62,744 nucleotides of DNA from Chthoniobacterales bacterium (GCA_026461395.1 JAPJNA010000046.1:1-62744); one strand, 5' to 3'; positions 14,999-34,053 are shown, counted from the stretch's first letter. Made by a program: numbers and translations. The notes: generated by a model not told the origin, from the letters alone.

Positions 14999-15023
14999 TT
15001 CATAACCCTCCCTTCCACTGGCC

Positions 15024-16225: not shown

Positions 16226-16334
16226 GGTTGTTTTTTACTCTCCGATTTTAGCGTGAGTGCTAACGGGCCGAATTATCTTGTACGATATTTGCCTTCGTAT
16301 ACTGGGTAAGAGTAGTACACTCTAAGGAGTGCTT

Positions 16335-17201: not shown

Positions 17202-17307
17202 CGGGACGCTGATGCCGAAGCGGAAGGCGTCTAAGCATTTTACTTAGTAAGATCTAAGCATTACAGCAGCTTTCGGCGCTGTGGGATCTGATGCAGGATG
17301 GCAAGCG

Positions 17308-17907
17308 ATGAATCATCCCTCCTCCTCAAATGCCCTATCACTCCGGAAGATCCGGCGACTACGGAATCATCATCTATCACCGGAATCCCCGCTGAATCAT
17401 CAAAGCCCGTCATCCGAAGAGCCTCTCTATCCCAAGGGATACGAAATCAGGATCATCTGCATCTATCCGTCGGTCGACGCCGGGAAACTAGGCAAGAAAT
17501 GGATCGAGATGGCTTTCCGAGAGATGGCCCCATTCTCCAGTACGAGCGTCGAGTATTTCAACTTCGCAGTCCTCAACCACGATGGGATCTGTTGGGAGCA
17601 CATCGTGGAGCGAATCATGCCTGACATCATCCTCATGGTAAGCGACGGGAATCACATGCTCAGCTCCGGCCTGAGGCACTCCCTAAGCGAACTGCTCTCT
17701 TTCCAGAATGGACGGAGAAAACCGATGGTCATCTTCCGGGATCTTGAGCCCCTCCCCACACTCAATACCCGCACTATTCTCGACTATGTCTCCGTGCTCA
17801 GTGATAGGAATCACTGTGAGTTCAATGCCGTGAACGGGGACGGCGATTCCATCAGCTGCTTCCGTCACCCAAGACTTCTTCTCAAGGGGCGGAAGCGCGC
17901 TGAATAA
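17308..17907 (+). CDS. Hypothetical protein
   Basis: ORF ends 7 nt before the epimerase start; no motif recognised. Confidence 0.6.
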   Translation: MNHPSSSNALSLRKIRRLRNHHLSPESPLNHQSPSSEEPLYPKGYEIRIICIYPSVDAGKLGKKWIEMAFREMAPFSSTSVEYFNFAVLNHDGICWEHIVERIMPDIILMVSDGNHMLSSGLRHSLSELLSFQNGRRKPMVIFRDLEPLPTLNTRTILDYVSVLSDRNHCEFNAVNGDGDSISCFRHPRLLLKGRKRAE

Positions 17908-17914
17908 CCACACC

Positions 17915-18904
17915 ATGCATATCCTCATCACGGGCGGCGCTGGATTTATTGGATCGCATCTTGCGGAACACCACCTGGCTAAGGGAGATTCCGTCACAGC
18001 CGTTGATGACCTTAGCACGGGTAGCTTAGAGGTTTTTTCAGGCTTCGACCGCTCGCGTCTTTTCTTCGAGACTGCGGATATCCTGACATGGCAGGGACTG
18101 GAGTCGGCCGTTGCCAAGGCCGACCGCATCTACCACATGGCGGCGGTGGTGGGGATGTTCCGCGTTCTCAAGGAACCGATTGAAGTCACTCGGGTGAATG
18201 TCCTCGGCACGGAGCGCCTTCTCGAGTCTGTTTCCAAAAGGGATCACCTTCCCGAATTGGTCGTGACCTCCAGTTCTTCGGTCTATGGGCATACCGCTTC
18301 AGAGGAGCTTATTGAGGGGATCGATCTCGTCTACGCGCCTGAGAAGGGAGGACTCACCGCCTATGCCCTCAGCAAACTGACGAACGAAGTCCAGGCGATG
18401 GCCTACCGCCAGATCCATAGTCTGCCGGTTTCCATTCCCCGCCTCTTCAATGCCGTCGGCCCCAGACAGTCTGGCAACTACGGATTTGTCCTTCCCCGAT
18501 TCATCAAACAGGCCCTCTCGGGGTTACCCCTCACCGTCTATGGTGACGGCACCCAGACGCGCTCCTTCTGCGATGTTCGTGACACGGTCGCTGCTCTCGA
18601 CATGCTTGTCGGGGAACCTGAGTCATGGGGAATTCCCGTCAATGTCGGCAATCCCAGGGAGATTACGATCCTTGATCTTGCCAGAATGGTGATCGAGCGC
18701 TCCGGTAGCAACTCATCGATCGAATTCATTCCCTTCGAGCAAGGATACGGTTCCCAGTTCTGGCAGATCACACAGAGACGACCCTCCGTCGAGCTTCTGC
18801 AAAGACTCACTCCATTCCAGCATGTCTGGACACTTGAAAAAACAATCGATGACTTGATCACCCGAAACCGGGTCAACGTGGTCCCCGACGGCAGACTTCT
18901 ATGA
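17915..18904 (+). CDS. NAD-dependent nucleotide-sugar epimerase/dehydratase
   Basis: ITGGAGFIGSH, YALSK, RLFNAVGPRQ, GDGTQTRSF. Confidence 0.92.
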   Translation: MHILITGGAGFIGSHLAEHHLAKGDSVTAVDDLSTGSLEVFSGFDRSRLFFETADILTWQGLESAVAKADRIYHMAAVVGMFRVLKEPIEVTRVNVLGTERLLESVSKRDHLPELVVTSSSSVYGHTASEELIEGIDLVYAPEKGGLTAYALSKLTNEVQAMAYRQIHSLPVSIPRLFNAVGPRQSGNYGFVLPRFIKQALSGLPLTVYGDGTQTRSFCDVRDTVAALDMLVGEPESWGIPVNVGNPREITILDLARMVIERSGSNSSIEFIPFEQGYGSQFWQITQRRPSVELLQRLTPFQHVWTLEKTIDDLITRNRVNVVPDGRLL

Positions 18905-20175
18905 TAACGACACGCCCATTCCGTATTCCATCTATTCACCTTTTATTCGCTCTTCTCCTGCTCATAACACTGCCTGCGGGGCTGCGTGGCGAAGGTAACA
19001 CTCCGCTCTGGAGTGTCGGAGAGACCCTCCCCATGGAGGACGAGTACCCGAATGCGAATTTAAGCAACTACCAACAGGGACAACTGGCCGAGGGACAGCA
19101 GCAGATTCTCCAGGCCCGCGAAGATTACCGTAAGGCGCTTGCAAGCAATCCCGAACAGAAGGACCTCCGAGAACACTATGCCTGGTTCCTCTATGCCAAC
19201 GGCTACCACGATAAGGAATGCCTTCACCTGCTCGAGCAGTCACTTCCCGATGCCGCCGATCCGACCAGGATCTTCAATGCCATCGTCGAAGTGAGGAACG
19301 AACTCCGCCTGCCCGCCACCCCGCTCAGAACGCCTCCGGGTGTACTCCAGAAAAAAACTGTGGCACCACATCATACTGTGATTGCCAAGGCCTCCACCGG
19401 TAAATCCTTGAAGAAGGTCGAGAAGGAGGAGATCGAAACAGTCGAGAGTTTCCGCCACTGGATCTTCATCCCTTACTACGATTACAGCTTCTTCAACGAC
19501 GGTCGTCAGGGCTGGCAGGAAGAGGACGCAACCCTCATCTATCGTGTCAACCAGCGCCTGGCACTCGGAGCCGAGATCGACATCATGCAGCGCCCCCCCT
19601 CGGGAACGAACACCTACTATAGCGCTCTCGCCTCCTACTACCTCTGGAAATGGCTCGAGGTTCACGGAAAGATTTCCATCTGTCCCGATCCAACCTTCCT
19701 TGCACTGCAGGTCTACACCGGAGGATTCATCTACCAGGCCGCTCCACGCCTCGGACTCCTGCTCGACTACCAGCGTTACAACTTTATCCAGGGACCCCTC
19801 GACCAGATCAATCCTGGCATAGCGTATAACTTCACGGACACAACCTCACTGGTGTTGCGTTATGTCCGCGGATGGGCCTTCAACAATCTCGAGTACAACT
19901 ACTACTCGGCAGCTCTGAATCTTGGTCTTCCCGGTAACCGTAGGCTCTCGATGGCTTTTGCCTATGGCACGGATCCTGATGCCCAAGTCGGGGCGAACGG
20001 CAACAATGTCAGCAGTCTGAGTCCCGCCTACACCTATTCCCTCTTCTTCACCCAGCCTATCACGCGCGATCTGAGTCTCTTCACCGGCGTGCAGTACATC
20101 TACCGCCTCACCCAGAACAACTCCCCACTCTACCAGCAACTCACTCCGACCCTGGGCCTTTCGATGAAATTCTAA
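18901..20175 (+). CDS. YaiO-family outer-membrane beta-barrel protein with N-terminal TPR-like helices
   Basis: Signal peptide, helical N-terminal part, aromatic alternating beta-strands, C-terminal Phe. Confidence 0.7.
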   Translation: MITTRPFRIPSIHLLFALLLLITLPAGLRGEGNTPLWSVGETLPMEDEYPNANLSNYQQGQLAEGQQQILQAREDYRKALASNPEQKDLREHYAWFLYANGYHDKECLHLLEQSLPDAADPTRIFNAIVEVRNELRLPATPLRTPPGVLQKKTVAPHHTVIAKASTGKSLKKVEKEEIETVESFRHWIFIPYYDYSFFNDGRQGWQEEDATLIYRVNQRLALGAEIDIMQRPPSGTNTYYSALASYYLWKWLEVHGKISICPDPTFLALQVYTGGFIYQAAPRLGLLLDYQRYNFIQGPLDQINPGIAYNFTDTTSLVLRYVRGWAFNNLEYNYYSAALNLGLPGNRRLSMAFAYGTDPDAQVGANGNNVSSLSPAYTYSLFFTQPITRDLSLFTGVQYIYRLTQNNSPLYQQLTPTLGLSMKF

Positions 20176-20177
20176 TC

Positions 20178-21251
20178 ATGAACCTGCTCATCATTGTCTC
20201 CATAACGGCAGCCATCCTCACACTGCTCAGCATCCTCCTGCTGACTTTCATTATTGGGATGAGAGTGTTCACCGATCGGAGCATTAATCATCAGGCTGAG
20301 TTTCGAAAGCGAGCTATCCCTCTGATCAATGCGTACCTTCGAGGAGAAGCTACCGTTGAGATCATCGCCCCGATCTTGCTAAAGGATCAGCACTTGGCAC
20401 TGCTGATCCTGATGGAGCAGGCGGATTCCCTTGATGAAAGAGAGCGAAAAAAACTCCATCCCCTCTTCGTTTCATTACCCAAGTTCAGGAATGAATCGCA
20501 TGCTCTGAAAAGCCGCCATTGGCAAACCCGACTCCATGGCGCGGAGCGTCTCGGTTACCTGGGCGACGACTCCTCACTCCCTGCGCTCATGACAGCCCTC
20601 CGCGATGATGTGGTAGGCGTCCGCTTCGCCGCGGCACGGTCACTGATCCATCTTGGCTGCGATGAAGCCGTCGAACCGATTCTCAGTTCCCTGGATATAC
20701 CGGGTGAGGTCTCCCAGCGGCGCGTTGCAGAGATCATCTCCTCACTCGGTTCACGTGCAATCGATCCCATCCTGAATGTGATGAATGGCCCCGGTTATGA
20801 CGATGCCTCACTCTCCATCGCCGCCCGTGTCGCGGGAATCCTCCGTTCGGAACGCGCCGTCTCCTCTCTCAGCCACCTTCTGAAGCATCAGGTGGCGAAT
20901 GTTCGGCTCAATGCCATCCGTTCCCTTGCCTCCATCGGCGATCATTCAGTGATCCAGGACATAGCCTCTCTCGGCGAAGATCCCTCCTGGGAGGTACGCA
21001 GCAGCGTGATGACCGCGCTGGGAAAGCTGCGCGCCTCAGAAAACATCCCGCTCCTGCTCGACGGACTATCCGATCAGGAGTGGTGGGTCAGGCACAATGC
21101 CGGGTACGCGCTCATGGCTATTGGTGATCAGGGAATCACTGCTCTCAGGAATGCCGCCGATCATCACACTGATGCCTTCGGACGCGACATGAGTCGCCAG
21201 ATTCTTCAGCAAAAAGGACTTCTCGAACCCAGCGCGGAGGTGCAGCCATGA
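20178..21251 (+). CDS. Membrane-anchored HEAT-repeat protein
   Basis: N-terminal TM; repeats VRFAAARSL, VRLNAIRSL, WEVRSSVMTAL, WWVRHNAGYAL. Confidence 0.9.
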   Translation: MNLLIIVSITAAILTLLSILLLTFIIGMRVFTDRSINHQAEFRKRAIPLINAYLRGEATVEIIAPILLKDQHLALLILMEQADSLDERERKKLHPLFVSLPKFRNESHALKSRHWQTRLHGAERLGYLGDDSSLPALMTALRDDVVGVRFAAARSLIHLGCDEAVEPILSSLDIPGEVSQRRVAEIISSLGSRAIDPILNVMNGPGYDDASLSIAARVAGILRSERAVSSLSHLLKHQVANVRLNAIRSLASIGDHSVIQDIASLGEDPSWEVRSSVMTALGKLRASENIPLLLDGLSDQEWWVRHNAGYALMAIGDQGITALRNAADHHTDAFGRDMSRQILQQKGLLEPSAEVQP

Positions 21252-22660
21252 TCACAATCCATATCCTCCTCTGGCTGATCCTTGCCTACTACATAACCCT
21301 CCAAGGCATCTACCTGATACTTGTACTCCTCGGAGCGACCCAGGCAAAAAGCTACCGTAGCGGGATCACCTTTGAGGAATTCCGGAGGATCGGGGAATCC
21401 CCGCTCAGCATGCCGGTCTCCCTGATCATTCCATGTTACAACGAGGAGGCGATCATCGTGGCAACAATCAGGAATGCTCTTCGCCTGAACTATCCCCAGT
21501 TTGAGGTGATCGTTGTCAGCGATGGATCAACTGATGGAAGCATCCAAGTTCTCAAAGAGAGCTTCCATCTCCGCAGGGTCGACCGATTTGGCAGGAGGCA
21601 CATCCTGTCCGAGGCTATCCTCGGTGTCTATGAATCCCAGGAACATCCGAGTCTCGTCGTGATCGAGAAAGTGAACGGACGCAGAGCAGATGCCATCAAC
21701 GCTGCGGTGACACTTTCGCGCTATCCTCTCCTCTGTATCATCGATGCCGATTGCGTGCTCGAAACCGATGCGCTACTCCACATGGCGCGACCATTTCTAC
21801 AAGACACCAGTGTCGCCGCCGTTGCTGGTATCGTCCGTCCTTCCAATGGCCTCAGCATCGTCGATGGGGAGATTCTTCACAACACTCTGCCCAAGACCCT
21901 GCTGGGAATGAATCAGGAGGTCGAGTACGCGCGGAGTTTCCAGTGGGCGAGAATTGGTCTCTGCAGGTTAAAAAGCATGCTCTGTATTTCCGGCGCCCTC
22001 CTTCTGATCAAAAAGAGCATCTTCGAGGAGGTCGGCGGCTCATGGCCCCAGGCTATCACTGATGACATCGAGTTCACCATGCGACTCAACCGTCACATCC
22101 ACGACAGGCGTAGGAAGGACCATGCACATCTCGTCTTTGTTCCCGACGCCGTCTGCTACACCGAAATTCCCGAGGAAATATGTCAGTATGCCTCCCAGAG
22201 GAATCGCTGGCAGCGCGGTACCATCCAGGCGCTCTTTCGCAATGCCGGCATGATCTTCAACCCCCGCTACGGCATGACCGGTCTCTTCGGCATGCCCTTC
22301 TTTCTCATCTTCGAAGCCCTCGCAGCCATCGTGGAAGTCTCTGCCTGGATCTTAATGGTAGTCTGTTTGGTGCTCGGGATCGCCAGCGGCTTTGAAATCA
22401 TCGCGATGATCTACCTAGCCTTCATCCTCGGAGTCTTCCTATCACTTACGGCAGTCCTGCTGACTGAATCAAGCCGCCTGCGTGCGGCAAATTGGCGGGA
22501 CTTCTGGCGCCTCATCCTTGCCATCCTTCTCGATAACCTGGGCTTCCATCAGTTCCACCTCATCATCCGCGTGATCGGAACCTTCCAGTACCTGATCGGC
22601 CGCAAGGATCTAGGGGCTGTCATGACTAGGAACGGAAACAATTCACCAATAACCAAGTAA
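21248..22660 (+). CDS. Processive GT2 glycosyltransferase (polysaccharide-synthase-like)
   Basis: PCYNEE, DGSTD, DAD, TDD and QRNRW motifs; N- and C-terminal TM helices. Confidence 0.92.
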   Translation: MITIHILLWLILAYYITLQGIYLILVLLGATQAKSYRSGITFEEFRRIGESPLSMPVSLIIPCYNEEAIIVATIRNALRLNYPQFEVIVVSDGSTDGSIQVLKESFHLRRVDRFGRRHILSEAILGVYESQEHPSLVVIEKVNGRRADAINAAVTLSRYPLLCIIDADCVLETDALLHMARPFLQDTSVAAVAGIVRPSNGLSIVDGEILHNTLPKTLLGMNQEVEYARSFQWARIGLCRLKSMLCISGALLLIKKSIFEEVGGSWPQAITDDIEFTMRLNRHIHDRRRKDHAHLVFVPDAVCYTEIPEEICQYASQRNRWQRGTIQALFRNAGMIFNPRYGMTGLFGMPFFLIFEALAAIVEVSAWILMVVCLVLGIASGFEIIAMIYLAFILGVFLSLTAVLLTESSRLRAANWRDFWRLILAILLDNLGFHQFHLIIRVIGTFQYLIGRKDLGAVMTRNGNNSPITK

Positions 22661-22665
22661 ACCCC

Positions 22666-23970
22666 ATGATCCCCAAACCCTCAGATTCCCTTTATGAGGT
22701 CGCAGTCGTTGGTCTCGGCTATGTCGGCATTCCACTTGCAATTGGCTTTGCCGAGGCCGGATGCCGCACATTGGGTTTCGATCTCAATCAGGAGCGTGTG
22801 CGTGAACTTCAGTCCGGACTCTCCCCATTGACTACGGTCCCGTCCGCGAGGATCAATGCAGTCACTGGAAAACAGCTCCTCACCTTCACAGGGAACAAGG
22901 AGGACCTTGCCCGCAGTGAGGCAATCATCATCTGCGTTCCCACTCCTCTTAGGGAACATCTCGATCCTGACATCACATTCATCCTCTCGGCTGGCGAAGA
23001 GATCGCTCCAATGCTGAGAAAAGGCATGCTGGTCTCTCTGGAATCCAGCACCTATCCCGGAACGACCCGCGAGGACCTTTGTAAAGTCCTTGAGAAGAAA
23101 TCAGGCCTCAAGGCCGGCGTTGACTTCGCACTCGCCTTCTCCCCCGAGCGTGAGGATCCGGGCAATGAGAAGAGTATTCTCAAGCAGATGCCCAAGGTTG
23201 TAGGGGGACTCACTCCCGATTGTCTCGAGCGAGCCGTAGAGCTCTACTCGCGTGCCGTCAGCAAAGTGGTCCCCGTCAGCAGTTGCGACACCGCGGAGGC
23301 AGTCAAACTCACGGAGAATATTTTCCGCTTCATCAACATCGCTCTGGTGAACGAGCTCAAGCGCATCTACACCCCCATGGGAATCGATATCTGGGAGGTC
23401 ATCGAAGCGGCGAAGACCAAGCCCTTTGGATTCATGCCATTCTATCCCGGTCCCGGAGTCGGAGGGCACTGCATCCCGCTTGATCCCTACTACCTGACCT
23501 GGAAGGCCCGTGAATTCAACCTCGATACGCGCTTTATCCAGATTGCTGGTCAGATTAACCGAGGAATGCCTTACTATGTTGTCAGTCACTTGACGGAGGG
23601 ACTCAATTCACTTTCCCTGCCAATTCAGGGGGTTCGCATCCTGATCCTTGGTCTCTCCTATAAAGCTAATATCCCTGATGACAGAGAGTCACCCTCTTAT
23701 GACATTATGAATATCCTCAAGGAGAAGGGAGCTGTGTTGGACTACTACGATCCTTTCATCCCAGTCATCGAAAAGCATGCCGGTCCTCGATGGGCAGGTC
23801 GTCACTCGATCACTTGGAATCCAGAAACGCTCGATAGCTACACCGCGGCCGTCGTCTGCACTCCTCACAAAGGAGTCGACTATGCACAACTCGCCGAGCA
23901 TGTCCCCCTCATCGTGGACGCATGTAATATCGTCCCCAAGAACAGCAAAGCCCGCGTCATCGCCGCCTAG
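22666..23970 (+). CDS. UDP-sugar (UDP-HexNAc/UDP-Glc) 6-dehydrogenase
   Basis: GLGYVG, ICVPTP, ESSTYPG, SPEREDPG, GGHCIPLDP. Confidence 0.93.
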   Translation: MIPKPSDSLYEVAVVGLGYVGIPLAIGFAEAGCRTLGFDLNQERVRELQSGLSPLTTVPSARINAVTGKQLLTFTGNKEDLARSEAIIICVPTPLREHLDPDITFILSAGEEIAPMLRKGMLVSLESSTYPGTTREDLCKVLEKKSGLKAGVDFALAFSPEREDPGNEKSILKQMPKVVGGLTPDCLERAVELYSRAVSKVVPVSSCDTAEAVKLTENIFRFINIALVNELKRIYTPMGIDIWEVIEAAKTKPFGFMPFYPGPGVGGHCIPLDPYYLTWKAREFNLDTRFIQIAGQINRGMPYYVVSHLTEGLNSLSLPIQGVRILILGLSYKANIPDDRESPSYDIMNILKEKGAVLDYYDPFIPVIEKHAGPRWAGRHSITWNPETLDSYTAAVVCTPHKGVDYAQLAEHVPLIVDACNIVPKNSKARVIAA

Positions 23971-23990
23971 CAGGGAAACGGGGAATCGAC

Positions 23991-24577
23991 TCCCGCGGAG
24001 GCGCAGAGGCGCGGAGAAGATACTATGAGCAAGGCTGATAATGGCGGGTATATTCCATTTAGAATCAATCTCCCCCTTCATTACCATGCATCCCTTCCCC
24101 CCCTCAGCGCCTCTGAGGGAAAATATCTTTTAACTCACCGGACAACTCAATGAACAATGAATGAAAATGAGATTGGCACACGGATTATTGAAGCAGCGAT
24201 CAGCGTGCATCGGGAACTTGGCCCAGGCCTCTTGGAGACTGTTTACGAAGTTGTCCTATCTCGGGAGTTAGCTAATCATGGATTGAAATCTGAGAGGCAA
24301 ATCCCCGTTCCGATCATCTACAAGGGAGTAACATTTGATGAGGGGTTCCGGGCCGACATCATCGTGGAGAAAAAAGTCCTGCTTGAGCTAAAATCTGTGG
24401 AGAGAATTATTCCAGCTCACAAGAAACAGGTTCAGACCTATTTGAAGCTGACAGGCTTGAAACTCGGATACCTACTGAATTTCGGGGAAGACGTTCTCAA
24501 GAGTGGAATCACCCGCTGCGTAAATGGACTGGAAGATTAGATTCTTCAACCCTCTGCGCCTCTGCGCCTCCGCGGGA
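23991..24577. mobile_element. Putative element: GxxExxY gene bracketed by 26-bp inverted repeats
   Basis: Left TCCCGCGGAGGCGCAGAGGCGCGGAG (23991-24016) and right CTCTGCGCCTCTGCGCCTCCGCGGGA (24552-24577) are 25/26 complementary; extra partial inverted arm at 24102-24120. Confidence 0.65.
24157..24540 (+). CDS. GxxExxY protein (PD-(D/E)XK-like nuclease fold)
   Basis: VHRELGPGLLETVY, RADIIVE...ELKS, QVQTYL, GYLLNFG. Confidence 0.93.
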   Translation: MNENEIGTRIIEAAISVHRELGPGLLETVYEVVLSRELANHGLKSERQIPVPIIYKGVTFDEGFRADIIVEKKVLLELKSVERIIPAHKKQVQTYLKLTGLKLGYLLNFGEDVLKSGITRCVNGLED

Positions 24578-25384: not shown

Positions 25385-25390
25385 TTCTCC

Positions 25391-25750
25391 TCTCCCGCAG
25401 GGGCGTGGAGAATAAAGACCGAGATCTCCCGCAGAGGCGCAGAGGCGCAGAGAGGGAAAGAGAAAAGGATTTAATATGGAACTCAGGAACTCAGGAAAAG
25501 CATGAGCCAACAATGTTGCATAAAGATCTTGAAGTAGGATCGAGCGAAATTCTCCTTACTTCCCAATAAGGGCACACGTCTTTATTTCTCTTTTTCATTT
25601 CTGAGTTCCTGAGTTCCATATTAATTCTCTGCCTCCTCTACATCTCAGAAATTGATATCCCGGCCATTGCCTCGCCTTAGCGCCTCTGCGGGAGAATCTC
25701 TGCGGGAGAATCTTTTCCCCCACCCCCTCTGCTTTTCTGCGTTGCGGGAA
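25391..25750. repeat. Nested inverted-repeat element (CGCAGAGG family outside, GGAACTCA family inside)
   Basis: Outer arms 25427-25452 and about 25676-25693; inner perfect 24-bp IR TTAATATGGAACTCAGGAACTCAG at 25471-25494 and 25601-25624. Confidence 0.8.
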
Positions 25751-25853
25751 AACATCTTCATTCCTCATTTTTCGCCCCCTCACCTACAAACATAAGCATT
25801 TCGCTTATCCCTATTCCTTCCACCTCTGATGATGCGAGAGGTAATGTTGAGTT

Positions 25854-28241
25854 ATGAACGAAATGGCACCGGCCAAACTCTCCGGATCAGTACCACCGCC
25901 GCCTCACCCACGCGAGGAGGAACGGATCGCCCGCCTACTTGGCTACGACGTTCTCGATACCGAACGCGATGAGCTTTTCGACCGTATCACCGCAATGGCT
26001 GCTGAGATCACGGGATCGCCGATCTCCCTTGTCTCCTTGGTCGACAGGAATCGGCAGTGGGTGAAGTCCAACTACGGAATCGATCTTAAGGAGAGTTCAC
26101 GCGACGACTCCTTCTGTGGTCATACGGTCATGGATGCGGATAATCTCATGATCATCCCGGATTCAATGAAGGATCCTCGCTTTGTTCATAATCCGTTTGT
26201 CGTCGGGGAACCCCACATCCGCTTCTACGCGGGTGTCCCTCTTCAGAATGGTGATGGCCTCGCAATTGGCAGTCTCTGTGTCATCGACCGGAAGCCGAGG
26301 GAATTAACACCAGATCAGATCGCCTCGTTGAAGAATCTCGCCAAGATTGCCATGGATTACCTCGATATCCATCGCTCCAATCGTGAACTCACACGTCTTC
26401 TTCTGAGGGAGAAGGAAATCTACAACCGACTTCTCAACATGTCCTCAGAGATGGCCTCCTCGTCAGTCACTCTGGAGCAGGCCCTCCAGAGTATCATGGA
26501 TCACCTTGATCCCACGATGGGATGGCTTTCATGCCGCATGACTAACTTCATGACCCATGGTTCCGATGGGATCCGAATGAATCCCCTCCTTCCCCAAGAT
26601 CCGGAAACCGCTCAGATCTGGAGGAAGATTGATTCTCAGGCCACAAAACCATCACACGATGGAGAGAACACAGCCTTCATCTCCACAGGCCTCGACGCAC
26701 CCAAGTATGCCTATCTCGTGGTGCCGATCAGGAACCGGGGTAAGCTGCAGGCCAAGATTGAAATGATCTACCCCGATCACCGCAAGATGGATCCCAGGAT
26801 CAAGGAGGTATTCGACATCATGGCGGCGAATCTCGCGATTGTGGCAGAGAGGGAGATCGCCAACATGGAGCTCCAGCACCGCGCCGTTCACGACGCGCTC
26901 ACCGGGGCTGTGAACCGGACGCTCTTCCTTGAGGAGCTTCAAAAAGCAATCTCTCAAACCGATTCGGGTAGCCCCGATTCCGCCCTCCTCTTTCTCGATC
27001 TCGATGGATTCAAGGATGTGAACGATAATTTCGGCCACCAGATTGGTGACCGCCTTCTCGTCGAGGTCACGGAACGACTTAGGCATCTCATCCGACAAGA
27101 AGACATTCTCGGACGTCTGAGTGGCGACGAGTTTGTCCTCCTGGTGAGCCATCTTGATATCCATCGGGATCTGGATGCATTGCTCAAACGGATTCAGAGA
27201 CGTATCTCCCAGCCCTACATGCTCGGTGATCTGGAGATCCGAATCACCAGCAGCATCGGTGCGGCGATTCTCGACCGGAACGACCTCACCACACCCGAGC
27301 TCCTTCGCCGTGCCGAGGAGTCCATGTACCTCGTCAAGCATGGGGAGCGGAATGGGTACTGCATCGCTACCGAGGACATCATCCGCGCATTCAAGAAGCG
27401 CCTCGATCTCGACCGCAATGTCCACGAAGCCGTCTATCAAAAACGGCTTCTGCTACATTTTCAGCCGATCGTGGAGATCGAAACCGGAAATATCTGCTCA
27501 GCGGAGGCGCTCCTCAGGGTGATGAACAAGGATGGGTCCATTCTCGCCGCTTTCGACATTATCCCCTCCATGGAGCGCATCCGCCTTATGTCTGAGGTTG
27601 ATGAATGGGTCTTCGCCGAGTCCGTCCGTATCCTCCAGCAACACAGGAAGACATGGGAGGCGATTCCTGGATTTCGCCTCTCTCTGAATGTGAGCCCTAG
27701 TATCCTCATGACCCATGGATTCGCCACCCTCTCCTTGAATCGCCTCCAGACAGCGAGTGTCTCCCCCACGATGATTCGTCTCGAGATCGTTGAGGACCAT
27801 CTGGATATGGGCAATGCCTCGCTGATGGAAAATATCACCCTCTTCCGCGATGCAGGGGTGAAGGTCGCAATCGATGACTTCGGGACAGGCTACAGCAACC
27901 TTCAGCACTTGATCTCCATCCCCTGCGACACGCTCAAGATCGACCGCTTGTTTATTCAGGGAATTCCCTCCGGAGACGAAAAGAAAATCCAACTCCTGAC
28001 CGCGATGCTTCAGTTGGGGAAAACCCTTGGCTACACTGTGATTGCCGAGGGGATCGAGCTTCAGGAACAGGCCGATCATCTCCTAGCGATCGGTTGCAAG
28101 TATGGGCAGGGATACCTCTACGGGAAGCCGATGACGATCGATCAGTTCCTCGAGCGCCTCATGGAGCAACCTCCGAACGAACTCGATCTCTTCTCCTCCT
28201 CACCAGAGCTCACACATACTCCGACGCTACGCCATCCCTAA
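25854..28241 (+). CDS. GAF-GGDEF-EAL protein
   Basis: GAF (IRFYAGVPL, GSLCVID), SGDEF, EALLR, DDFGTGYS, QGYLYGKP. Confidence 0.93.
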   Translation: MNEMAPAKLSGSVPPPPHPREEERIARLLGYDVLDTERDELFDRITAMAAEITGSPISLVSLVDRNRQWVKSNYGIDLKESSRDDSFCGHTVMDADNLMIIPDSMKDPRFVHNPFVVGEPHIRFYAGVPLQNGDGLAIGSLCVIDRKPRELTPDQIASLKNLAKIAMDYLDIHRSNRELTRLLLREKEIYNRLLNMSSEMASSSVTLEQALQSIMDHLDPTMGWLSCRMTNFMTHGSDGIRMNPLLPQDPETAQIWRKIDSQATKPSHDGENTAFISTGLDAPKYAYLVVPIRNRGKLQAKIEMIYPDHRKMDPRIKEVFDIMAANLAIVAEREIANMELQHRAVHDALTGAVNRTLFLEELQKAISQTDSGSPDSALLFLDLDGFKDVNDNFGHQIGDRLLVEVTERLRHLIRQEDILGRLSGDEFVLLVSHLDIHRDLDALLKRIQRRISQPYMLGDLEIRITSSIGAAILDRNDLTTPELLRRAEESMYLVKHGERNGYCIATEDIIRAFKKRLDLDRNVHEAVYQKRLLLHFQPIVEIETGNICSAEALLRVMNKDGSILAAFDIIPSMERIRLMSEVDEWVFAESVRILQQHRKTWEAIPGFRLSLNVSPSILMTHGFATLSLNRLQTASVSPTMIRLEIVEDHLDMGNASLMENITLFRDAGVKVAIDDFGTGYSNLQHLISIPCDTLKIDRLFIQGIPSGDEKKIQLLTAMLQLGKTLGYTVIAEGIELQEQADHLLAIGCKYGQGYLYGKPMTIDQFLERLMEQPPNELDLFSSSPELTHTPTLRHP

Positions 28242-28252
28242 GGAACTCATTC

Positions 28253-30634
28253 ATGAACAACGAGCCATTACCATCTTCCCCTGTGAATAAATCCTCTACC
28301 GCTGGAGAAATCCCCTCTTCCCCTACCCCGTATGAGGAGGAGCGTCTTTCCGTTCTCCAGAGCTTCGATCTCCTAAACAAAGAACCAATCCCCATTCTCG
28401 ATATCCTCTGCCAGTACACCGCCACTCATTGTGGTGTTCCCACGGCAGCCATCACGCTGGTAGATCGGGAAAAGATCCTGCTCAAGTCTGTCGCAGGAGT
28501 GATCAAGCCCCTAGAAATCGAGCGCACGACGAGCTTCTGTGCCAATGCCCTGATTAGTAGGGAGAAGGTCTTTGTCGTTCCCGACACATTTCTCGATCCG
28601 CGGTTTGCCTCCAATCCCCAGGTCACGCAGGAACCCTTCATTCGCTTCTATGCATCCGTGCGACTGACCACCACCACAGGTCAGGACATCGGATGTTTCT
28701 GCATCATGGATACCAAGCCGGGAACACTCTCAGAGGATCATGCAGAGTTTCTGACAGGCATGGCCAAGCAGGTCATCAAGTACCTGGAGGGTGAAAAGAC
28801 GAAAAAGGATCTTGCCCGCCTGCTCCTTCTTGAAAAAGAGGTCTATAACAAGCTCCTGCTCACCTCGGCGAACCTAGCATCCGTAGCACCCACCTTTGAC
28901 GAGGCTCTCCAGAGCATGATCCTCCATCTTGATCCAAAGCTCGGATGGCTCTCGGCCCGCATCCGCAACATGCAGACCGGCGGCACCACGGGGATCACAT
29001 ACAACCCGATCCTACCCGAGGATCCCGAGCTCCCCCTGCTCTGGAACCGCCTCGATAGTCAGTCCAGCCACCCCAGGCTGGAAGTGCCCCAGACGGACTT
29101 CATCAACTCCGCCCCGCTCCGCCCCGAGTACTCCCATCTGGTAGTTCCGGTACGGATCCGTGAGCGGCTTGTCGCCGTGATGGAGTTTCTCTATCCGGAT
29201 CATCGCAATGCGGATCCCCGGATTCGTGATGTCTTCAACCTCATCGCGGCCAATCTCTCCATCGTCGCAGAACGCGAACTCCTGAACATCGATCTGAAGT
29301 ACAAGTCAGAGCACGACCACAACTCAGGAGCGCCGAACCGCGAACTCTTCGTCCAGAGGCTGGATCGGATCCTTCAGGAGGGGAGCCTCATGAGCAATCG
29401 GAAACTGGTGCTCTTCTGCTTCGACATCAATGGTTTCCAGTCGATCAGCGACGACTTCGGCTACGAGGCCGGAGTCGAAGTACTCCGTGAGATCACCAGA
29501 AGGGCATCAAAGTTCTGCTCGGGGGATGACACGATCGGGCGACTTGTCGGCGGGGAGTTCCTTCTGCTCATTCATGAGAGAGAGCCCTACAGCTCACTCG
29601 AACTCACCATCAAGCGGGTGACATCCAACCTGAGCGGCGAGTTCCAATATGGTGATGCCAGCATTGATATCCAATTGAGCATAGGTTGTGTGGCCCTTGG
29701 TTCTGCCGAAGGATCCTCAGCCGAACTCATCCGCCGTGCCGAGGAGGCTATGCACCGCGTCAAGAACGGACAGAATCGCGGAATCTGCGTTGCCGATGAG
29801 CAGGTCACGCGGGAGTTCCTCTACAAAAGGGCGATGAACCGCACGGTCAAGGATGCGGTGAAGAACAACAGAATCTCACTCTACTATCAGCCGATCGTCG
29901 AGTTAGCCACGGGTAGGATCGTGGGGGCGGAGGCCCTGATGCGTCTGGTGAATCAGGATGGAAAACTTCTAGAGGCCAAGGATTTCATCGACTCCATGCA
30001 TAGGATGCGTCTGCTGGGCCAGATCGATGCCTGGGTCATCTCAGAGGTGCTTCTCATCTTGAAGGAAAACAAGAGCTTTCGGGATATGATTCCCGACTTC
30101 TATTTCTCCCATAATGTTACGCCTGAGGTCATCTGCCGGGAGGACTTTCACGAGCACTTCATCGCACAAGTCGAGCGATCCGGCGCACCCGCAAACGGAA
30201 TCCACATCGAGATCACCGAACAATCGATCATCCCCAACAACCAGATCCCCAACAACCAGATCCCCAACAACCAGATCCTAATCAATAACCTCAAGGTAAT
30301 GAAGGATTATGGCATCAAGGTATCTCTGGATGATTTCGGCACGGGATACAGCAATCTTCAGATCATCGCGCAATACCCGGTCGACATTATCAAGATCGAT
30401 CGCTCCTTCCTCACAGGGATTGTCTCCGGAAATACCGTGATGAACAACCTCTTGCGCTCCATCACCGACATTGCCAAGAACTTTGGCTGCAGCATGGTGG
30501 CCGAGGGAATAGAGCAACAGGCCGAGGCAGAGCACCTCCTCTCGCTGGGATGCACCCATGGACAGGGATATCTCTTCGGGAAGCCAATGCCTCTAAAGGA
30601 ACTCCACGCACTGGTCATGAAGCAATCAGGCTAA
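28253..30634 (+). CDS. GAF-degenerate GGDEF-EAL protein (likely phosphodiesterase)
   Basis: Paralog of the previous gene; VGGEF degenerate site; EALMR, DDFGTGYS; start at MNNEP. Confidence 0.9.
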   Translation: MNNEPLPSSPVNKSSTAGEIPSSPTPYEEERLSVLQSFDLLNKEPIPILDILCQYTATHCGVPTAAITLVDREKILLKSVAGVIKPLEIERTTSFCANALISREKVFVVPDTFLDPRFASNPQVTQEPFIRFYASVRLTTTTGQDIGCFCIMDTKPGTLSEDHAEFLTGMAKQVIKYLEGEKTKKDLARLLLLEKEVYNKLLLTSANLASVAPTFDEALQSMILHLDPKLGWLSARIRNMQTGGTTGITYNPILPEDPELPLLWNRLDSQSSHPRLEVPQTDFINSAPLRPEYSHLVVPVRIRERLVAVMEFLYPDHRNADPRIRDVFNLIAANLSIVAERELLNIDLKYKSEHDHNSGAPNRELFVQRLDRILQEGSLMSNRKLVLFCFDINGFQSISDDFGYEAGVEVLREITRRASKFCSGDDTIGRLVGGEFLLLIHEREPYSSLELTIKRVTSNLSGEFQYGDASIDIQLSIGCVALGSAEGSSAELIRRAEEAMHRVKNGQNRGICVADEQVTREFLYKRAMNRTVKDAVKNNRISLYYQPIVELATGRIVGAEALMRLVNQDGKLLEAKDFIDSMHRMRLLGQIDAWVISEVLLILKENKSFRDMIPDFYFSHNVTPEVICREDFHEHFIAQVERSGAPANGIHIEITEQSIIPNNQIPNNQIPNNQILINNLKVMKDYGIKVSLDDFGTGYSNLQIIAQYPVDIIKIDRSFLTGIVSGNTVMNNLLRSITDIAKNFGCSMVAEGIEQQAEAEHLLSLGCTHGQGYLFGKPMPLKELHALVMKQSG
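30230..30278 (+). repeat. In-frame 15-bp tandem repeat x3 (IPNNQ)
   Basis: ATCCCCAACAACCAG x3 followed by ATCC. Confidence 0.95.
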
Positions 30635-30706
30635 GCAGGAGTCTCAGCTATGCGACCAGAGCGGTCGGGTCATCTGTGATGAATTAGTCAAAATCATAAG
30701 GTTCTT

Positions 30707-32299
30707 ATGAAAGACATGCCCTCCAGACGGATCACGCAACCTATCAGGCAGAGGATCCTTCTCTTGAGGCGAAATATTCTCGCCCTCTGTGCGCTAACCG
30801 TGATCGCACTCTGGGGTGTGGTCCTCTACGCGCTCCACATCGAGTGGATCAATCGTCTGAAGGAGGAGAAGGTGGCACTCATACGCCATGCCAGCATCAT
30901 CTCGGGCAAGATCCACGACTCACTCGTCGATGCGAGCAAGATCATCGATGCGGTACGCACGGCTATCGAAAAGCAGATCAGCGTCGCATCTCCGGATCGA
31001 CGTCAAGCTTACGAGGTCATTCGCACGGTCATTCAGAACTTCAGCATCTACAACTCGGGCGACACATTGGGTCTGCTTCTCTACCTGGACAAGAACGGCT
31101 TTCTTACTGCCCAAAGCGGGGTCTACCCCTCCCCTGCCTATGATCTCACGGAGAGGGGCTATTTCCGTTCCCTTAGGGATGATCCCTCCAGGAAGTTTTC
31201 CATCGGCAAGATGAGGACAGCCATCACCACGGGCAAGCAGGTTTTTCACCTGTCAATGGCGCTACATAGCCCCCAGGGTGGGTTTGCGGGGGTGGTCGCA
31301 TGTCAAATCAGAGAGAAAGAACTCGCTGAGTCCATCGATCACATGCTCAAGGGGATCCACAACCAGATCCTGGTCCAGATCCCGAGTGATGGAACCGCCT
31401 TTCTTTATCCCACGACAGGTGAGATCCCCAAACAGGAGTCCCTGCTCAACGAGGAACTCCTGAGAGGCATCACCGGGAATCGGCAGGAAAGTGGACTGAT
31501 TGGTAATGAAGAAACTGGAACACTCAGAATCAGCGGAGCTAACTCGGCGTTTCGGGAAACGACTTATGTCGGATATGTAAGGGATCCCCTCTTTGGACTC
31601 CTCACCACAGCCAGAATTCCCGAATCGCAAATCATGAGAAGCTTTCTCCTCCAGAACGAATGCCTTATCGGACTGGCCATCCTGACTTCCCTGGGAATCA
31701 GCATCCTCTTTTATAGACTCTATCGAAAGGCGCTCTCGCTGGATAAATCGATCCATGAGGCTTCCTTCGACCACCTCACCCTGATCAGGAACCGGCGCTC
31801 TCTGGAGAAGGAGTTTCACCGTCTCTGGCGTGATGCGTCTCGTCGCAAGAAACCAATCAGCTTGCTCTTCATCGATATCGATCGGTTCAAGCAATTCAAC
31901 GACACGCACGGCCATGCAGCGGGTGATCGAGTGCTGATGGCAACGGCTCTCGTGATAAATCGCTCCCTAAACCGCCCCCTCGATCTCTGCTGTCGATGGG
32001 GTGGCGAGGAATTCCTAGCCCTTCTACCCGAAACAACGGCTCAGGAAGCCCTCTTCGTTGCAGAGCGGATCAGGCAACGCATCGGCATGATGAAGCTGAA
32101 GTTTCATGGAAAACCTCTTTCCCATATCACCCTGAGTATCGGTATTGCTGCAACCATGTCCCGGGTGCAGGCAGAGTTCCTGCACGAGTCGAAGTCTGGG
32201 ATTTATGAGCGGATCACCCCGGAGGATCTCATCGCCCGGGCCGACAAGGCCCTCATGCAGGCGAAGGAGTTGGGACGCGATCGGGTTATCATTGGCTGA
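30707..32299 (+). CDS. Membrane sensor (Cache-like) diguanylate cyclase
   Basis: Two TMs flanking a periplasmic domain; DIDRFKQFND, RPLD I-site, RWGGEEF. Confidence 0.92.
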   Translation: MKDMPSRRITQPIRQRILLLRRNILALCALTVIALWGVVLYALHIEWINRLKEEKVALIRHASIISGKIHDSLVDASKIIDAVRTAIEKQISVASPDRRQAYEVIRTVIQNFSIYNSGDTLGLLLYLDKNGFLTAQSGVYPSPAYDLTERGYFRSLRDDPSRKFSIGKMRTAITTGKQVFHLSMALHSPQGGFAGVVACQIREKELAESIDHMLKGIHNQILVQIPSDGTAFLYPTTGEIPKQESLLNEELLRGITGNRQESGLIGNEETGTLRISGANSAFRETTYVGYVRDPLFGLLTTARIPESQIMRSFLLQNECLIGLAILTSLGISILFYRLYRKALSLDKSIHEASFDHLTLIRNRRSLEKEFHRLWRDASRRKKPISLLFIDIDRFKQFNDTHGHAAGDRVLMATALVINRSLNRPLDLCCRWGGEEFLALLPETTAQEALFVAERIRQRIGMMKLKFHGKPLSHITLSIGIAATMSRVQAEFLHESKSGIYERITPEDLIARADKALMQAKELGRDRVIIG

Positions 32300-32544
32300 G
32301 TTGGAATTTTGTCGAGAGGCGCAGAGATAGAAGAAAACTCATAGGGATCCGTAACGGCTGCGTAGCAAAGAGATGTGTAAAGCAAAGGGATGAAAGGGAT
32401 GGGGGGGTAGATTCGCACGAGAAATCTTATCTTGTATTATATTGCCCCGAAATATAACGCTTAGAAACTAACCAGTTCGTTTTCATAGTTCGTTCAATGC
32501 TTTAGTTATTATACACCTTAGCCCCAACTGTACCCCCGCAGGTA

Positions 32545-34053
32545 ATGCTCACTGGAAAGCCGACATCCCGAAAAAAGATCAAGCGATTCTTTCTCCTGAT
32601 CCTAACGCTGGTCCTCATCATCGGCGGTCTCTCGGTTTATTCTGCATGGAGATCTTGCCTACTGAAGACAGAGGATCAGATGAAGCGGGATGCCTCCGCA
32701 GTCTCACTTCTGGTTAATAACTCGCTGGAGTCCGGCCTCAAGATCCTCAGGCTTACAGAACCGAGAATCACAGGGAAAATCCTACACGGCAAAGATGCTT
32801 GGAAAAATCCGGAGTTAAGCGCGGTGCTGAGTTCCTGCATGGAAGAGTTCGGTCTGACCTCCAGCAATGATCAGTTGGGCTTCCTGATCCTGCTTGATGC
32901 GTCGGGATATCTGATCGCCAGAAGCGGGGAAGATCCCCACAGGAAGTTGGATTTCTCCGACCGCTACTTCTTCACGGATCTCAGGGATAATCCTTCCAAG
33001 CAATTCACGGCAAGCTCCCTACGGATTTCCGAAACAACGGGGTCGCCAGCCTTTCATATCGCTATTCCACTCAGGAACTCTAAGAGCTCTCCAAAGCCCC
33101 TCCTCGGTGTTCTTTCCCTACAAATCGACGCGGAAAAGATAGACCGTGAGCTTGAGAAAATCGTGCAGAACCCTGGGGAGCGAATCGTGATGATGATGTC
33201 CAATGGAATGACCATCTTCCAATACCCACTACCACCCCTTCCCCAGGCGACAGATCTCTTGGAGAACAGTCGTGTGATTCAGGGACCGATGGCAAGCCAT
33301 GTGATGCAAGGAGGGGGAGCGTTTCTTGGATCCGTTGGCAATATTGCGGCTAGGAGCCATGTGATCACACTCCCCCACGACAAATTCGGACTATCCACTT
33401 CCGTGCTGATACCCCGCCAGAGTATCGCAACGGCTTTTTGGAGTGTGAACTCACACCTGCTCTACCTGACCGTGTTAACGATTCTGTTAATAGGACTTTT
33501 TTACATAGGGGTTTGCTCGCAGACGCGAAACCTCGAGAAGGCTATCTTCGATTCCAAGACGGATAGTAACACGGGTCTTTGGAACCGTAGGCACCTTGAG
33601 GAAGAACTTACCCGTTTACTCTCCCAAGCGCTCCGTACCAATTCGCCACTCAGTGTGCTCTTCATCGATATTGATCATTTCAAATCCTTCAACGACACCA
33701 ATGGACACGATCTGGGCGACAAGGTGCTCAACGCAGTCGCCCAATGCATCACCAATATGGCAAAACGCCCTCTGGACTGCAGTTGCCGCTGGGGCGGTGA
33801 GGAGTTCGTGATGGTGTTGCCGGAAACGAGTCCCGAGGATGCCGTGAAAATCTCTAATCAATTGATGGCGATGGTTGGACGGATTGAGATAGGCCAATTG
33901 TCTAAGATCCCGAATCACGCGATCACCATCAGCGTCGGTATTGCCAGCACCGCCCTCTCCCCTGATGCGACACCCGATGAACTGATTGTGATTGCGGATC
34001 ATGCGATGCTCCGAGCCAAGGAGGAAGGTCGAAACCGGGTCGTTCTGGCTTAG
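32545..34053 (+). CDS. Membrane sensor (Cache-like) diguanylate cyclase, paralog
   Basis: DFSDRYFF, DIDHFKSFND, RPLD, RWGGEEF. Confidence 0.92.
   Translation: MLTGKPTSRKKIKRFFLLILTLVLIIGGLSVYSAWRSCLLKTEDQMKRDASAVSLLVNNSLESGLKILRLTEPRITGKILHGKDAWKNPELSAVLSSCMEEFGLTSSNDQLGFLILLDASGYLIARSGEDPHRKLDFSDRYFFTDLRDNPSKQFTASSLRISETTGSPAFHIAIPLRNSKSSPKPLLGVLSLQIDAEKIDRELEKIVQNPGERIVMMMSNGMTIFQYPLPPLPQATDLLENSRVIQGPMASHVMQGGGAFLGSVGNIAARSHVITLPHDKFGLSTSVLIPRQSIATAFWSVNSHLLYLTVLTILLIGLFYIGVCSQTRNLEKAIFDSKTDSNTGLWNRRHLEEELTRLLSQALRTNSPLSVLFIDIDHFKSFNDTNGHDLGDKVLNAVAQCITNMAKRPLDCSCRWGGEEFVMVLPETSPEDAVKISNQLMAMVGRIEIGQLSKIPNHAITISVGIASTALSPDATPDELIVIADHAMLRAKEEGRNRVVLA

Follow-up and report, generated by a model that had tools for sequence, protein, structure and literature searches.

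The region at positions 17308 to 34053 of a 62,744-nucleotide stretch of DNA from a Chthoniobacterales bacterium (one strand; the whole stretch is referred to as the window) raises the question of whether a row of genes that joins a membrane polysaccharide synthase to a HEAT-repeat protein and an outer-membrane barrel represents a secretion system of its own and, if so, whether that system is controlled by cyclic di-GMP (c-di-GMP), enzymes for which are encoded downstream. The evidence presented here comprises gene content, sequence motifs, synteny, phyletic counts and a co-fold score. On this evidence the locus is real and represents an uncharacterised form of synthase-dependent polysaccharide secretion, in which the synthase has a partner of a new kind. 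The best explanation of the whole, which is considered somewhat probable, is that of an exchangeable secretion cassette located in a slot and switched by c-di-GMP, the genes at 17915-25384 being regarded, as part of the same explanation, as a self-contained and horizontally exchanged cassette that is separable from the signalling genes around it.

Gene calls were based on a listing of open reading frames (ORFs) and on Pfam and NCBIfam scans of the window proteins. An initial annotation had described a co-oriented and mostly abutting gene row, which is borne out by the listing and the scans: all genes that it named are present on the + strand where it had placed them, although one further ORF (24157-24540), lying between the dehydrogenase and hydrolase genes, was missing from its list. 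The six cassette genes encode an extended short-chain dehydrogenase/reductase (SDR; 17915-18904), a YaiO-type outer-membrane barrel protein (18901-20175), a membrane-anchored HEAT-repeat protein (20178-21251; HEAT_2, 97.8 bits), a family-2 glycosyltransferase (GT2) synthase (21248-22660), a nucleotide-sugar 6-dehydrogenase (22666-23970) and a glycoside hydrolase of the family 16 (GH16) type (24524-25384), and they are preceded by a gene for an orphan protein, here designated hyp208 (17308-17907). Spacing along the series from hyp208 through SDR, barrel, HEAT and GT2 to the dehydrogenase amounts to 8, -4, 3, -4 and 6 bases, negative values denoting overlap.

Species-representative genomes were scanned with an alignment of the HEAT family, which yielded 30 loci onto which the window proteins were mapped by tblastn. 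These loci derive mostly from metagenome-assembled genomes (MAGs) of Chthoniobacterales/Spartobacteria, together with five Gammaproteobacteria-type MAGs and one actinobacterial MAG. The GT2 gene directly follows the HEAT gene in 28 of the 30 loci, the two remaining contigs ending after the HEAT gene; the juxtaposition of HEAT protein and synthase highlighted by the initial annotation is thus constant wherever the contig permits a check (28/28). The YaiO barrel gene lies directly upstream of the HEAT gene in 27 of 29 informative loci, and the order SDR-barrel-HEAT-GT2 is kept in 25 of 30, including the gammaproteobacterial loci L025, L027 and L028. The core of barrel, HEAT protein and GT2 is hence confirmed for two phyla. 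A dehydrogenase gene after GT2 is found in 23 of these loci and a GH16 gene in 21, while in Gammaproteobacteria four or five core genes are bordered by unrelated housekeeping genes. Because the arrangement recurs in related loci it is far beyond chance, and the genes do occur together elsewhere.

The cassette is patchily distributed: 29 of the 401 genomes sampled from the order (4 of 93 genera) possess it, as do 12 of 23 within the genus to which the window belongs. When 401 genomes were sampled evenly across the phylum, a family-level HEAT match was obtained only in G000 (E 7e-174), the five other HEAT matches at E<=1e-20 being weak (77-103 bits) and four of them covering the repeat region only. 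Similarly, the HEAT partner was present at E<=1e-40 in one of 301 sampled genomes of the order to which the gammaproteobacterial locus L029 belongs, namely the query genome itself.

The GT2 protein (470 aa; PF13641, 84 bits; Chitin_synth_2, 46.9 bits) contains all catalytic motifs of processive membrane synthases (D, DxD, TED-like and QxxRW), represented by D92, D166xD168, T271-D272-D273 and QRNRW317-321, each of which is conserved without change in all 18 aligned sequences. A simple hydropathy scan located hydrophobic segments (1-31, 343-409 and 422-440) that flank the GT domain. The best curated family is PgaC_IcaA (TIGR03937), with a score of 131.5 bits against a cut-off of 422.3, and with the CelA model the protein reaches 48.6 of the 699 bits required; long matches to solved chains were restricted to the Chlorella-virus hyaluronan synthase (residues 134-417) and BcsA, at E ~1e-6. 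Judging by these motifs and matches, the protein is a processive GT2 enzyme that is PgaC/hyaluronan-synthase-like and constitutes the polymer synthase of the cassette.

Its neighbour, the HEAT-repeat protein (357 aa), exhibits a single N-terminal hydrophobic segment (1-33; hydropathy scan), and PGE..QRR and D..WWVR motifs are invariant in the family alignment. Basic residues that follow the hydrophobic helix suggest that the solenoid is cytoplasmic. Co-folding of the two proteins returned a median score of 0.74 (runs of 0.71, 0.74 and 0.76) as compared to 0.00 for the best of three controls, this score being the confidence of a model built from our own alignments and not a measurement. Of 157 solved complexes, 116 attain the mark thereby passed, as do 2 of 215 mismatched pairs, counts that are rough, with own alignments having been used here. 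At least 73% of contacts recur between runs, and the pLDDT of the partner is at least 81. In the model the interface is made up of two parts, the first of which places the single transmembrane helix of the HEAT protein (3-32) against GT2 helices 382-423, and the second HEAT residues 79-182 against GT2 residues 35-55 and 183-187; it includes the invariant HEAT residues G176 and R182, belonging to the PGE..QRR motif, and the invariant GT2 residues F183 and L184. No solved complex that resembles this pair is known to us, and it therefore seems unlikely that the score reproduces a structure on which the model was trained. The HEAT protein is thus predicted to be a partner of the synthase, in line with the role that had been proposed for it initially.

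The locus L019 deserves separate mention, as its segment 7407-9910, compared with window positions 20178-22660, shows 56% identity for HEAT and 75% for GT2, as against 89-99% for the other flanking genes, except the SDR gene (80%). The HEAT and GT2 genes of this mosaic locus resemble L004-type alleles, which suggests that the pair was replaced together by recombination and provides a further hint that the two genes are inherited as a pair. Apparent HEAT-GT2 fusions, considered as Rosetta-stone evidence, were discarded, the long open frames being chance upstream extensions over the barrel gene. Finally, the proteins P0244 and P0242 (943 aa), distant GT2 homologues with 34-36% identity, contain a transmembrane helix and ~450 helical residues ahead of the GT2 domain, with one weak HEAT_2 match. 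Similarity of these two proteins to the HEAT family was non-significant (hhalign probability 1.8%, hmmsearch E 2.6), and their N-terminal part may correspond to the HEAT partner in fused form.

The barrel protein was initially described as a TPR region plus a YaiO-like barrel. In an AlphaFold2 (AF2) model (pLDDT 74), a signal peptide is followed by four helices (56-134), a disordered linker and, at 187-423, a barrel of 14 strands, for which OmpG is the best structural match (target-normalised TM-scores of 0.66-0.71); the C-terminal Phe is invariant. The protein scores 22.6 bits with the YaiO model TIGR04390 (cut-off 32), aligning to model positions 7-230 of 230, and 19 of 19 homologues match the same model at E<=0.01 (best E 4.5e-24). 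Support for the TPR region is weak, every TPR match in Pfam falling below its cut-off, with TPR_Slam the best at 25.6 bits. Since most homologues are barrel-only proteins of ~285-294 aa, the TPR-like part appears to be a clade-specific addition.

Two cassette proteins are candidates for precursor supply. The SDR protein (PF01370, 154.5 bits) has human UXS1 (138.6 bits) and then 6wjb (124.2 bits) as its nearest solved chains. The Glu of the STSEVYG segment of UXS is catalytic in decarboxylases. Alignment to UXS1 (4lk3) places SSSSVYG opposite STSEVYG, so that the catalytic Glu of UDP-glucuronate decarboxylases is not present in the SDR protein; with Ser in its place, the sequence fits an epimerase rather than a decarboxylase or dehydratase, and the protein is most likely a UDP-sugar C4-epimerase. 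The dehydrogenase (TIGR03026, 378.6 bits) is closest to the solved chains 4r16 (224 bits), Cap5O and 3g79, and its best equivalogs, all below cut-off, are UDP-ManNAc dehydrogenase (WecC) and TviB. By these matches it belongs to the UDP-N-acetylhexosamine clade and not to the UDP-glucose type. As no WecB-type 2-epimerase was found over cut-off in the 95%-complete genome, UDP-GlcNAc or UDP-GalNAc would be the likelier substrate. The uronic-acid polymer originally proposed is consequently plausible as far as the dehydrogenase is concerned; the UDP-sugar, however, is of the N-acetylhexosamine type, and an N-acetylhexosaminuronic acid is therefore likelier than glucuronic acid.

The hydrolase scores above the family cut-off (PF00722, 35.3 bits against 22) and carries the ExDxE catalytic motif of GH16 in the form of DEID[IL]E, whose residues E146, D148 and E150 are the same in all 13 homologues. 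A hydrophobic segment is present near the N-terminus (20-38; hydropathy scan), and no lipobox was found in the sequence. The proposed beta-1,3 linkage of the polymer does not follow from this assignment, as a GH16 fold cannot reveal linkage.

With these proteins described, it may be considered whether the product is a secreted exopolysaccharide at all, or instead a short oligosaccharide or a periplasmic or lipid-linked glycan, with the barrel acting as a Slam-type protein translocator. Such a product would be in keeping with the small size of the synthase (470 aa) and its few predicted membrane segments, with TPR_Slam being the best, albeit sub-cut-off, TPR match, and with the lack of a periplasmic scaffold in most relatives. 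Known glycan porins possess 16-18 strands, and the barrel has 14 rather than this number. Nevertheless, the barrel travels with HEAT and GT2 in nearly all informative loci and matches the YaiO family and no Slam model, the GH16 protein is without a lipobox, the synthase retains all motifs of processive enzymes including QRNRW, and an exported hydrolase accompanies the cassette in 21 loci, as is the case in known secretion systems. A non-secreted product is thus deemed very improbable.

Turning to control, the genome, which is that of a freshwater-type verrucomicrobium (2.03 Mb, 95% complete), contains only four GGDEF and two EAL matches, all of which reside in the four genes after the cassette (26.9-34.0 kb of the window), so that every c-di-GMP enzyme gene lies within 9 kb of the cassette end. 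GAF-GGDEF-EAL protein 1 (25854-28241), identified like its neighbour from Pfam domains and motifs, exhibits SGDEF with RxxD and intact EAL motifs, and is likely a phosphodiesterase or bifunctional enzyme, while GAF-GGDEF-EAL protein 2 (28094-30634), with its GGDEF motif lost and its EAL motifs intact, is likely a phosphodiesterase. The two dCache-GGDEF proteins (30707-32299, GGDEF 145.2 bits, dCache_1 33.1 bits; and 32545-34053, GGDEF 148.6 bits, dCache_1 34.6 bits; both dCache_1 scores being below the cut-off of 45) each possess GGEEF, an RxxD I-site and two hydrophobic segments, which suggests two active membrane diguanylate cyclases. All four genes are on the + strand. The two GAF-GGDEF-EAL frames overlap by 148 bases (28094-28241) if the TTG start is real, and tblastn alignments at L008 and L019 likewise run through an overlap of ~115-145 bases. 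Cyclase and phosphodiesterase genes are thereby linked to the locus, and a search of the whole 95%-complete genome for PilZ and HD-GYP returned no match.

A similar setting is encountered elsewhere, as GGDEF/EAL genes occur in the fetched flanks of 17 of the 30 loci and are of at least five architectures: GAF-GGDEF-EAL, dCache-GGDEF, REC-PAS-GGDEF-EAL (L026), REC-GGDEF with a histidine kinase (L015) and cNMP-GGDEF (L027, a gammaproteobacterium). The 12 genomes of the genus that bear the cassette contain 33 GGDEF matches, of which 21 are situated at most 15 kb downstream of the HEAT gene on the same contig; two of these assemblies are fragmented and have no GGDEF match on the HEAT contig. Furthermore, GGDEF is found in all 25 cassette-bearing genomes of genera g1 and g194, as compared to 20 of 42 cassette-free genomes of g1, g2 and g194, counts that are descriptive since they concern related MAGs, many of them incomplete, and not independent events. 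On the basis of gene context, it is considered probable that c-di-GMP is involved in some way in the control of the cassette. For the c-di-GMP control postulated in the initial annotation the evidence is thus gene context, and no receptor was found among known domains.

Comparison within the genus indicates that the cassette occupies a slot. In three congeners (G577, G491 and G605; loci L032, L038 and L035, respectively) the regulator gene that precedes hyp208, hyp208 itself and GGDEF-EAL follow one another in order without a cassette, and the gap between hyp208 and GGDEF-EAL holds either nothing (G577 and G491) or a few unrelated genes. In G547, genes for an SLBB protein, Bac_transf, two GT4 enzymes and an acyltransferase lie between these two flanks, and the same different polysaccharide genes are found upstream of the GGDEF-EAL array in G673. 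In two cassette-free congeners, Bac_transf, two GT4 genes and an acyltransferase gene were located upstream of the GGDEF-EAL array at 3989-12134 of L031 and 2644-11431 of L033, the scan for the SLBB export protein of this alternative locus having covered L033 only.

The distribution of hyp208 (17308-17907, + strand; alternative start GTG at 17281) follows that of the signalling genes. Of 36 genomes of the family, 20 encode it, and these are precisely the ones with GGDEF, both being missing in the other 16; just 12 of the 20 hyp208-bearing genomes harbour the cassette, and where the latter is missing hyp208 stays beside GGDEF-EAL. The hypothetical protein that had been counted among the cassette genes is thus removed from that list. 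No Pfam or NCBIfam match was obtained for hyp208, and a profile search of 1.84 billion proteins recovered 14 representatives at E<=1e-3 and no known family; matches in the Atlas were limited to unnamed verrucomicrobial clusters. Its model (pLDDT 74) displays five beta-alpha units in a flavodoxin/receiver-like fold, for which Foldseek and VIA-align gave generic flavodoxin, Rossmann and receiver matches only, with flat Z values of 7.6-9.7. The C-terminal tail, FRHPRxLLKxRxxxE, is conserved and arginine-rich.

Upstream of hyp208 lies a gene for a LuxR/NarL-type response regulator (16329-17201, + strand; Response_reg 70.7 bits, GerE 54.1 bits), in which Glu68, invariant in 7 of 7 homologues, stands at the place expected for the phospho-Asp and a second acidic residue of the receiver pocket is lacking. 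The position of Glu68 is taken to be that of the phospho-acceptor Asp by comparison with the NarL-type motif. The regulator is probably a phosphorylation-independent pseudo-receiver, and both it and hyp208 are assigned to the signalling set and not to the secretion machine. That hyp208 might be a candidate c-di-GMP effector or pathway component is put forward as an idea and not as a result.

These data bear on a second alternative, namely that the machine is as described while c-di-GMP acts only on transcription, hyp208 and/or the regulator reading c-di-GMP on behalf of whichever locus occupies the slot and the HEAT protein being purely structural. The varied contents of the slot (the cassette in 12 genomes of the genus, a different polysaccharide locus in G547 and, upstream, in G673, or nothing in G577 and G491) are in favour of this notion, as are the joint presence and absence of hyp208 and GGDEF across the 36 family genomes, the invariant Glu of the regulator, by which a phosphorylation drive becomes unlikely, and the lack of PilZ in the genome. 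However, hyp208 and this regulator are confined to one genus, whereas GGDEF/EAL genes of other architectures are found beside the cassette in further genera and one gammaproteobacterium, which points to a receptor in the conserved core; in addition, no c-di-GMP-binding motif has been shown in hyp208 or the regulator, and the hyp208 fold is generic. Control by transcription alone is accordingly regarded as possible, though doubtful.

Several observations weigh against the explanation favoured here, i.e., that of an exchangeable and c-di-GMP-switched secretion cassette. With regard to the machine, the co-fold score reflects model confidence, the window barrel falls below the curated YaiO cut-off and its TPR matches below theirs, the periplasmic domain is missing in most barrel homologues so that passage of the chain across the periplasm is left unexplained, and the assignment of the sugar is based on sub-threshold family scores. 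With regard to the signal, the phyletic counts are descriptive, and Pfam and NCBIfam scans found no known c-di-GMP-binding domain in any cassette protein. Eight of 11 cassette-free congeners keep GGDEF genes; in those genomes c-di-GMP therefore has a target outside the cassette, and the signalling genes, being retained without it, are not dedicated to this machine alone. The view of the whole region as a single dedicated c-di-GMP system hence calls for revision. Moreover, among loci whose flanks are long enough, no GGDEF/EAL gene is found nearby in three of five from Gammaproteobacteria (L025, L028 and L029), nor in four verrucomicrobial ones (L009, L011, L016 and L017).

These seven loci are what would be expected if the cassette were not controlled by c-di-GMP, its proximity to the signalling genes being due to a shared variable island and its input being another one, such as a phosphorelay. 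The cassette does behave as an indel relative to the signalling genes, and the histidine kinase of L015 adjoins the REC-GGDEF gene of that locus. Conversely, at least five GGDEF/EAL architectures beside the cassette across lineages, the presence of GGDEF in 25 of 25 cassette-bearing genomes and the confinement of all c-di-GMP enzyme genes of this genome to the vicinity of the cassette end are difficult to reconcile with such independence, which is judged improbable.

The nature of the sugar, the path of export and both the dependence on c-di-GMP and the way in which c-di-GMP acts are inferred, under the favoured explanation of a c-di-GMP-switched cassette, as follows. In the cytoplasm, the SDR protein, acting as C4-epimerase, and the dehydrogenase would turn a UDP-N-acetylhexosamine into a UDP-N-acetylhexosaminuronic acid, which GT2 would polymerise while threading the chain through the inner membrane. 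The transmembrane helix of the HEAT protein is modelled as packing on the C-terminal helices of the synthase, with the first HEAT repeats contacting the cytoplasmic GT domain. The chain would then exit via the 14-strand YaiO barrel, and the exported GH16 protein would trim or release it. The cassette is envisaged in a variable polysaccharide slot, with the atypical LuxR-type regulator and hyp208 on its left and the c-di-GMP enzymes on its right. In view of this setting of Cache cyclases and GAF phosphodiesterases, the polymer would most likely be switched on by c-di-GMP that is made upon sensing of periplasmic ligands, and the route of c-di-GMP may be transcriptional (through the regulator pair), allosteric (through HEAT-GT2) or both.

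A bolder formulation, which is advanced tentatively, would have HEAT-GT2-YaiO represent a distinct and unstudied class of secretion machine, in which the HEAT protein, a cytoplasmic solenoid tethered to the membrane, is an obligate co-subunit as well as a signal-input hub, and which, in this lineage, serves as the swappable output of a minimal c-di-GMP network made up of two cyclases and two phosphodiesterases without any PilZ, the new effector being the HEAT-GT2 interface or hyp208 with its arginine-rich tail. The interest of the locus lies in several aspects. Synthase-dependent secretion is known from a handful of systems, i.e., those for cellulose, poly-N-acetylglucosamine (PNAG), Pel, alginate and Nfr, and in each of these finding out how c-di-GMP reaches the synthase has been a substantial finding; the conserved pair of synthase and partner reported here has no described counterpart. 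A genome of 2 Mb with a four-gene set of c-di-GMP enzymes and no PilZ is a very small system in which to seek a new c-di-GMP effector, and the HEAT-GT2 interface and hyp208 are concrete candidates. Furthermore, a slot in which the same regulators are combined with swappable polysaccharide loci shows an origin of surface-polymer diversity in the abundant Verrucomicrobiota of fresh water and soil.

Other features of the region were also recorded. The ORF between the dehydrogenase and hydrolase genes (24157-24540, + strand, 127 aa) encodes a GxxExxY PD-(D/E)XK protein (TIGR04256, 141.4 bits) and shares 17 bases with the start of the GH16 gene. Besides the window, five of the 30 related loci (L002, L003, L007, L008 and L019) contain it, whereas it is missing from the otherwise collinear L001 and L004-L006, and its family has four matches in the whole genome; it is probably a variable insert within the cassette and not part of the secretion machine. 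At the right edge of the cassette there are nested inverted repeats with a motif resembling repetitive extragenic palindromic (REP) elements (25391-25709, no strand), situated between the GH16 gene and the first GAF-GGDEF-EAL gene, with arms at 25425-25447/25673-25695 and 25468-25497/25598-25627. The REP-like motif TCTCCCGCAGAGG (at most two mismatches) occurs in 15 copies in the window as compared to 3.6 expected; these copies are located at 25391-25709 and at 11 further sites, mostly just past gene ends and as inverted pairs, and those at 25391-25709 are nested as inverted repeats around a second, 30-base inverted pair. An Rfam scan for a c-di-GMP riboswitch or other RNA element returned only a tRNA at gathering score, along with two chance-level matches of miRNA models on an inverted repeat, and a promoter and terminator scan gave no more sites than were found in shuffles.

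The tRNA in question, tRNA-Leu(taa) (16153-16225, + strand; Rfam RF00005, 59.5 bits; ARAGORN), marks the left edge of the regulatory and polysaccharide region and is positioned between the cytochrome bd oxidase genes (13460-16061) and the regulator gene. Its possible use as an integration site of an island was considered; three GGDEF-free congeners lose the match after cydB, the tRNA not being included. In G591, the GGDEF-free congener with enough contig, the 12 kb downstream of cydB match nothing in the window. On the other side, shortly downstream of the c-di-GMP genes, an erythromycin-esterase-family gene (35581-36936; PF05139, 422 bits) is preceded by genes for an alpha/beta hydrolase and a phosphoribosyltransferase.

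It remains to compare the locus with known systems. The full-text literature searched (themes of HEAT/PBS lyase, YaiO, PNAG synthase and Verrucomicrobia c-di-GMP, with few subscription journals covered) yielded no paper that describes the module. The contention that this is a synthase-dependent locus distinct from Pga, Bcs and Nfr is supported by the membership features examined for these three, none of which was found. For Bcs, there is no PilZ in the whole genome and no BcsB match in the locus. Nfr is a recently recognised system that produces a polymer of N-acetylated amino sugars under local c-di-GMP control. The NfrB-NfrA-YbcH system of E. coli is likewise synthase-dependent and comprises a GT2 synthase and a TPR-plus-barrel outer-membrane protein; in contrast, the 470-aa synthase of the present locus has no MshEN-type domain, the barrel protein is of the YaiO type without an NfrA_C match, and a HEAT partner is present.

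Resemblances to other polymer pathways concern single components. The synthase shares with hyaluronan synthase, chitin synthase and NodC its Chitin_synth_2 match and its matches to the solved chains of viral hyaluronan synthase and BcsA, and in has operons a uronic-acid-forming dehydrogenase is encoded beside the synthase, as in this locus. Those enzymes, however, act alone or with other partners, are accompanied by no HEAT protein, dedicated barrel or GH16 hydrolase, and display low identity to the GT2 protein (E ~1e-6). The Pel system contains an alpha-solenoid membrane protein, PelE, and the second-best solved relative of the SDR protein (6wjb/6wj9, 124 bits) is what we take to be PelX, a UDP-GlcNAc C4-epimerase; nonetheless, the Pel synthase is a GT4 enzyme, its receptor is PelD, and its porin and hydrolase are unrelated to those described here. 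As for TviB/TviC and WbpO/WbpP, these also pair a dehydrogenase of the N-acetylhexosamine clade with an SDR 4-epimerase (TviB model 217 bits, TviC model 80.9 bits), yet the curated cut-offs (592 and 760) are missed by a wide margin. Both pairs supply routes other than a GT2 synthase: Vi is made by a GT4 polymerase, and WbpO/WbpP serve the Wzy-dependent assembly of O-antigen.

As some of the relatives are Lysobacterales, the Xanthomonas xagABCD genes were taken as a lead and compared by published descriptions only. According to two publications, xagBCD-like genes consist of one for a GT (~2.05-2.08 kb), one of unknown function and one for a GH10, next to which a BcsB-like gene is found, and the gene set as described there differs from the cassette (PMC4643136, PMC8250860). 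Passages of six others give no xag gene products (PMC3609779, PMC3542200, PMC8042644, PMC3826837, PMC4624772, PMC3633832). As the HEAT partner is, in addition, rare in the order concerned (one of 301 sampled genomes), xagABCD was provisionally set aside as a counterpart.

The PgaABCD/IcaADBC system for poly-beta-1,6-N-acetylglucosamine differs in composition. The PgaC_IcaA score of the synthase is far under the equivalog cut-off, and no matches to PgaD, the PgaB deacetylase or a PgaA-type large TPR porin were found among the locus proteins in Pfam and NCBIfam. The partner found here is a cytoplasmic HEAT solenoid of 357 aa, the barrel is of the 14-strand YaiO type, and epimerase, dehydrogenase and GH16 genes are added. 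The likeness lies in the kind of machine: PgaC_IcaA is the best curated family of the synthase, and in both systems the synthase is a small processive GT2 with an apparent need for a small membrane partner, which in the present case would be the HEAT protein with its transmembrane helix modelled on the synthase. An outer-membrane barrel and, probably, a substrate derived from an N-acetylhexosamine are likewise common to both. PgaD acts beside PgaC, and c-di-GMP acts on PgaC-PgaD; by virtue of its co-fold contacts with the synthase, the predicted role of the HEAT protein resembles that of PgaD.

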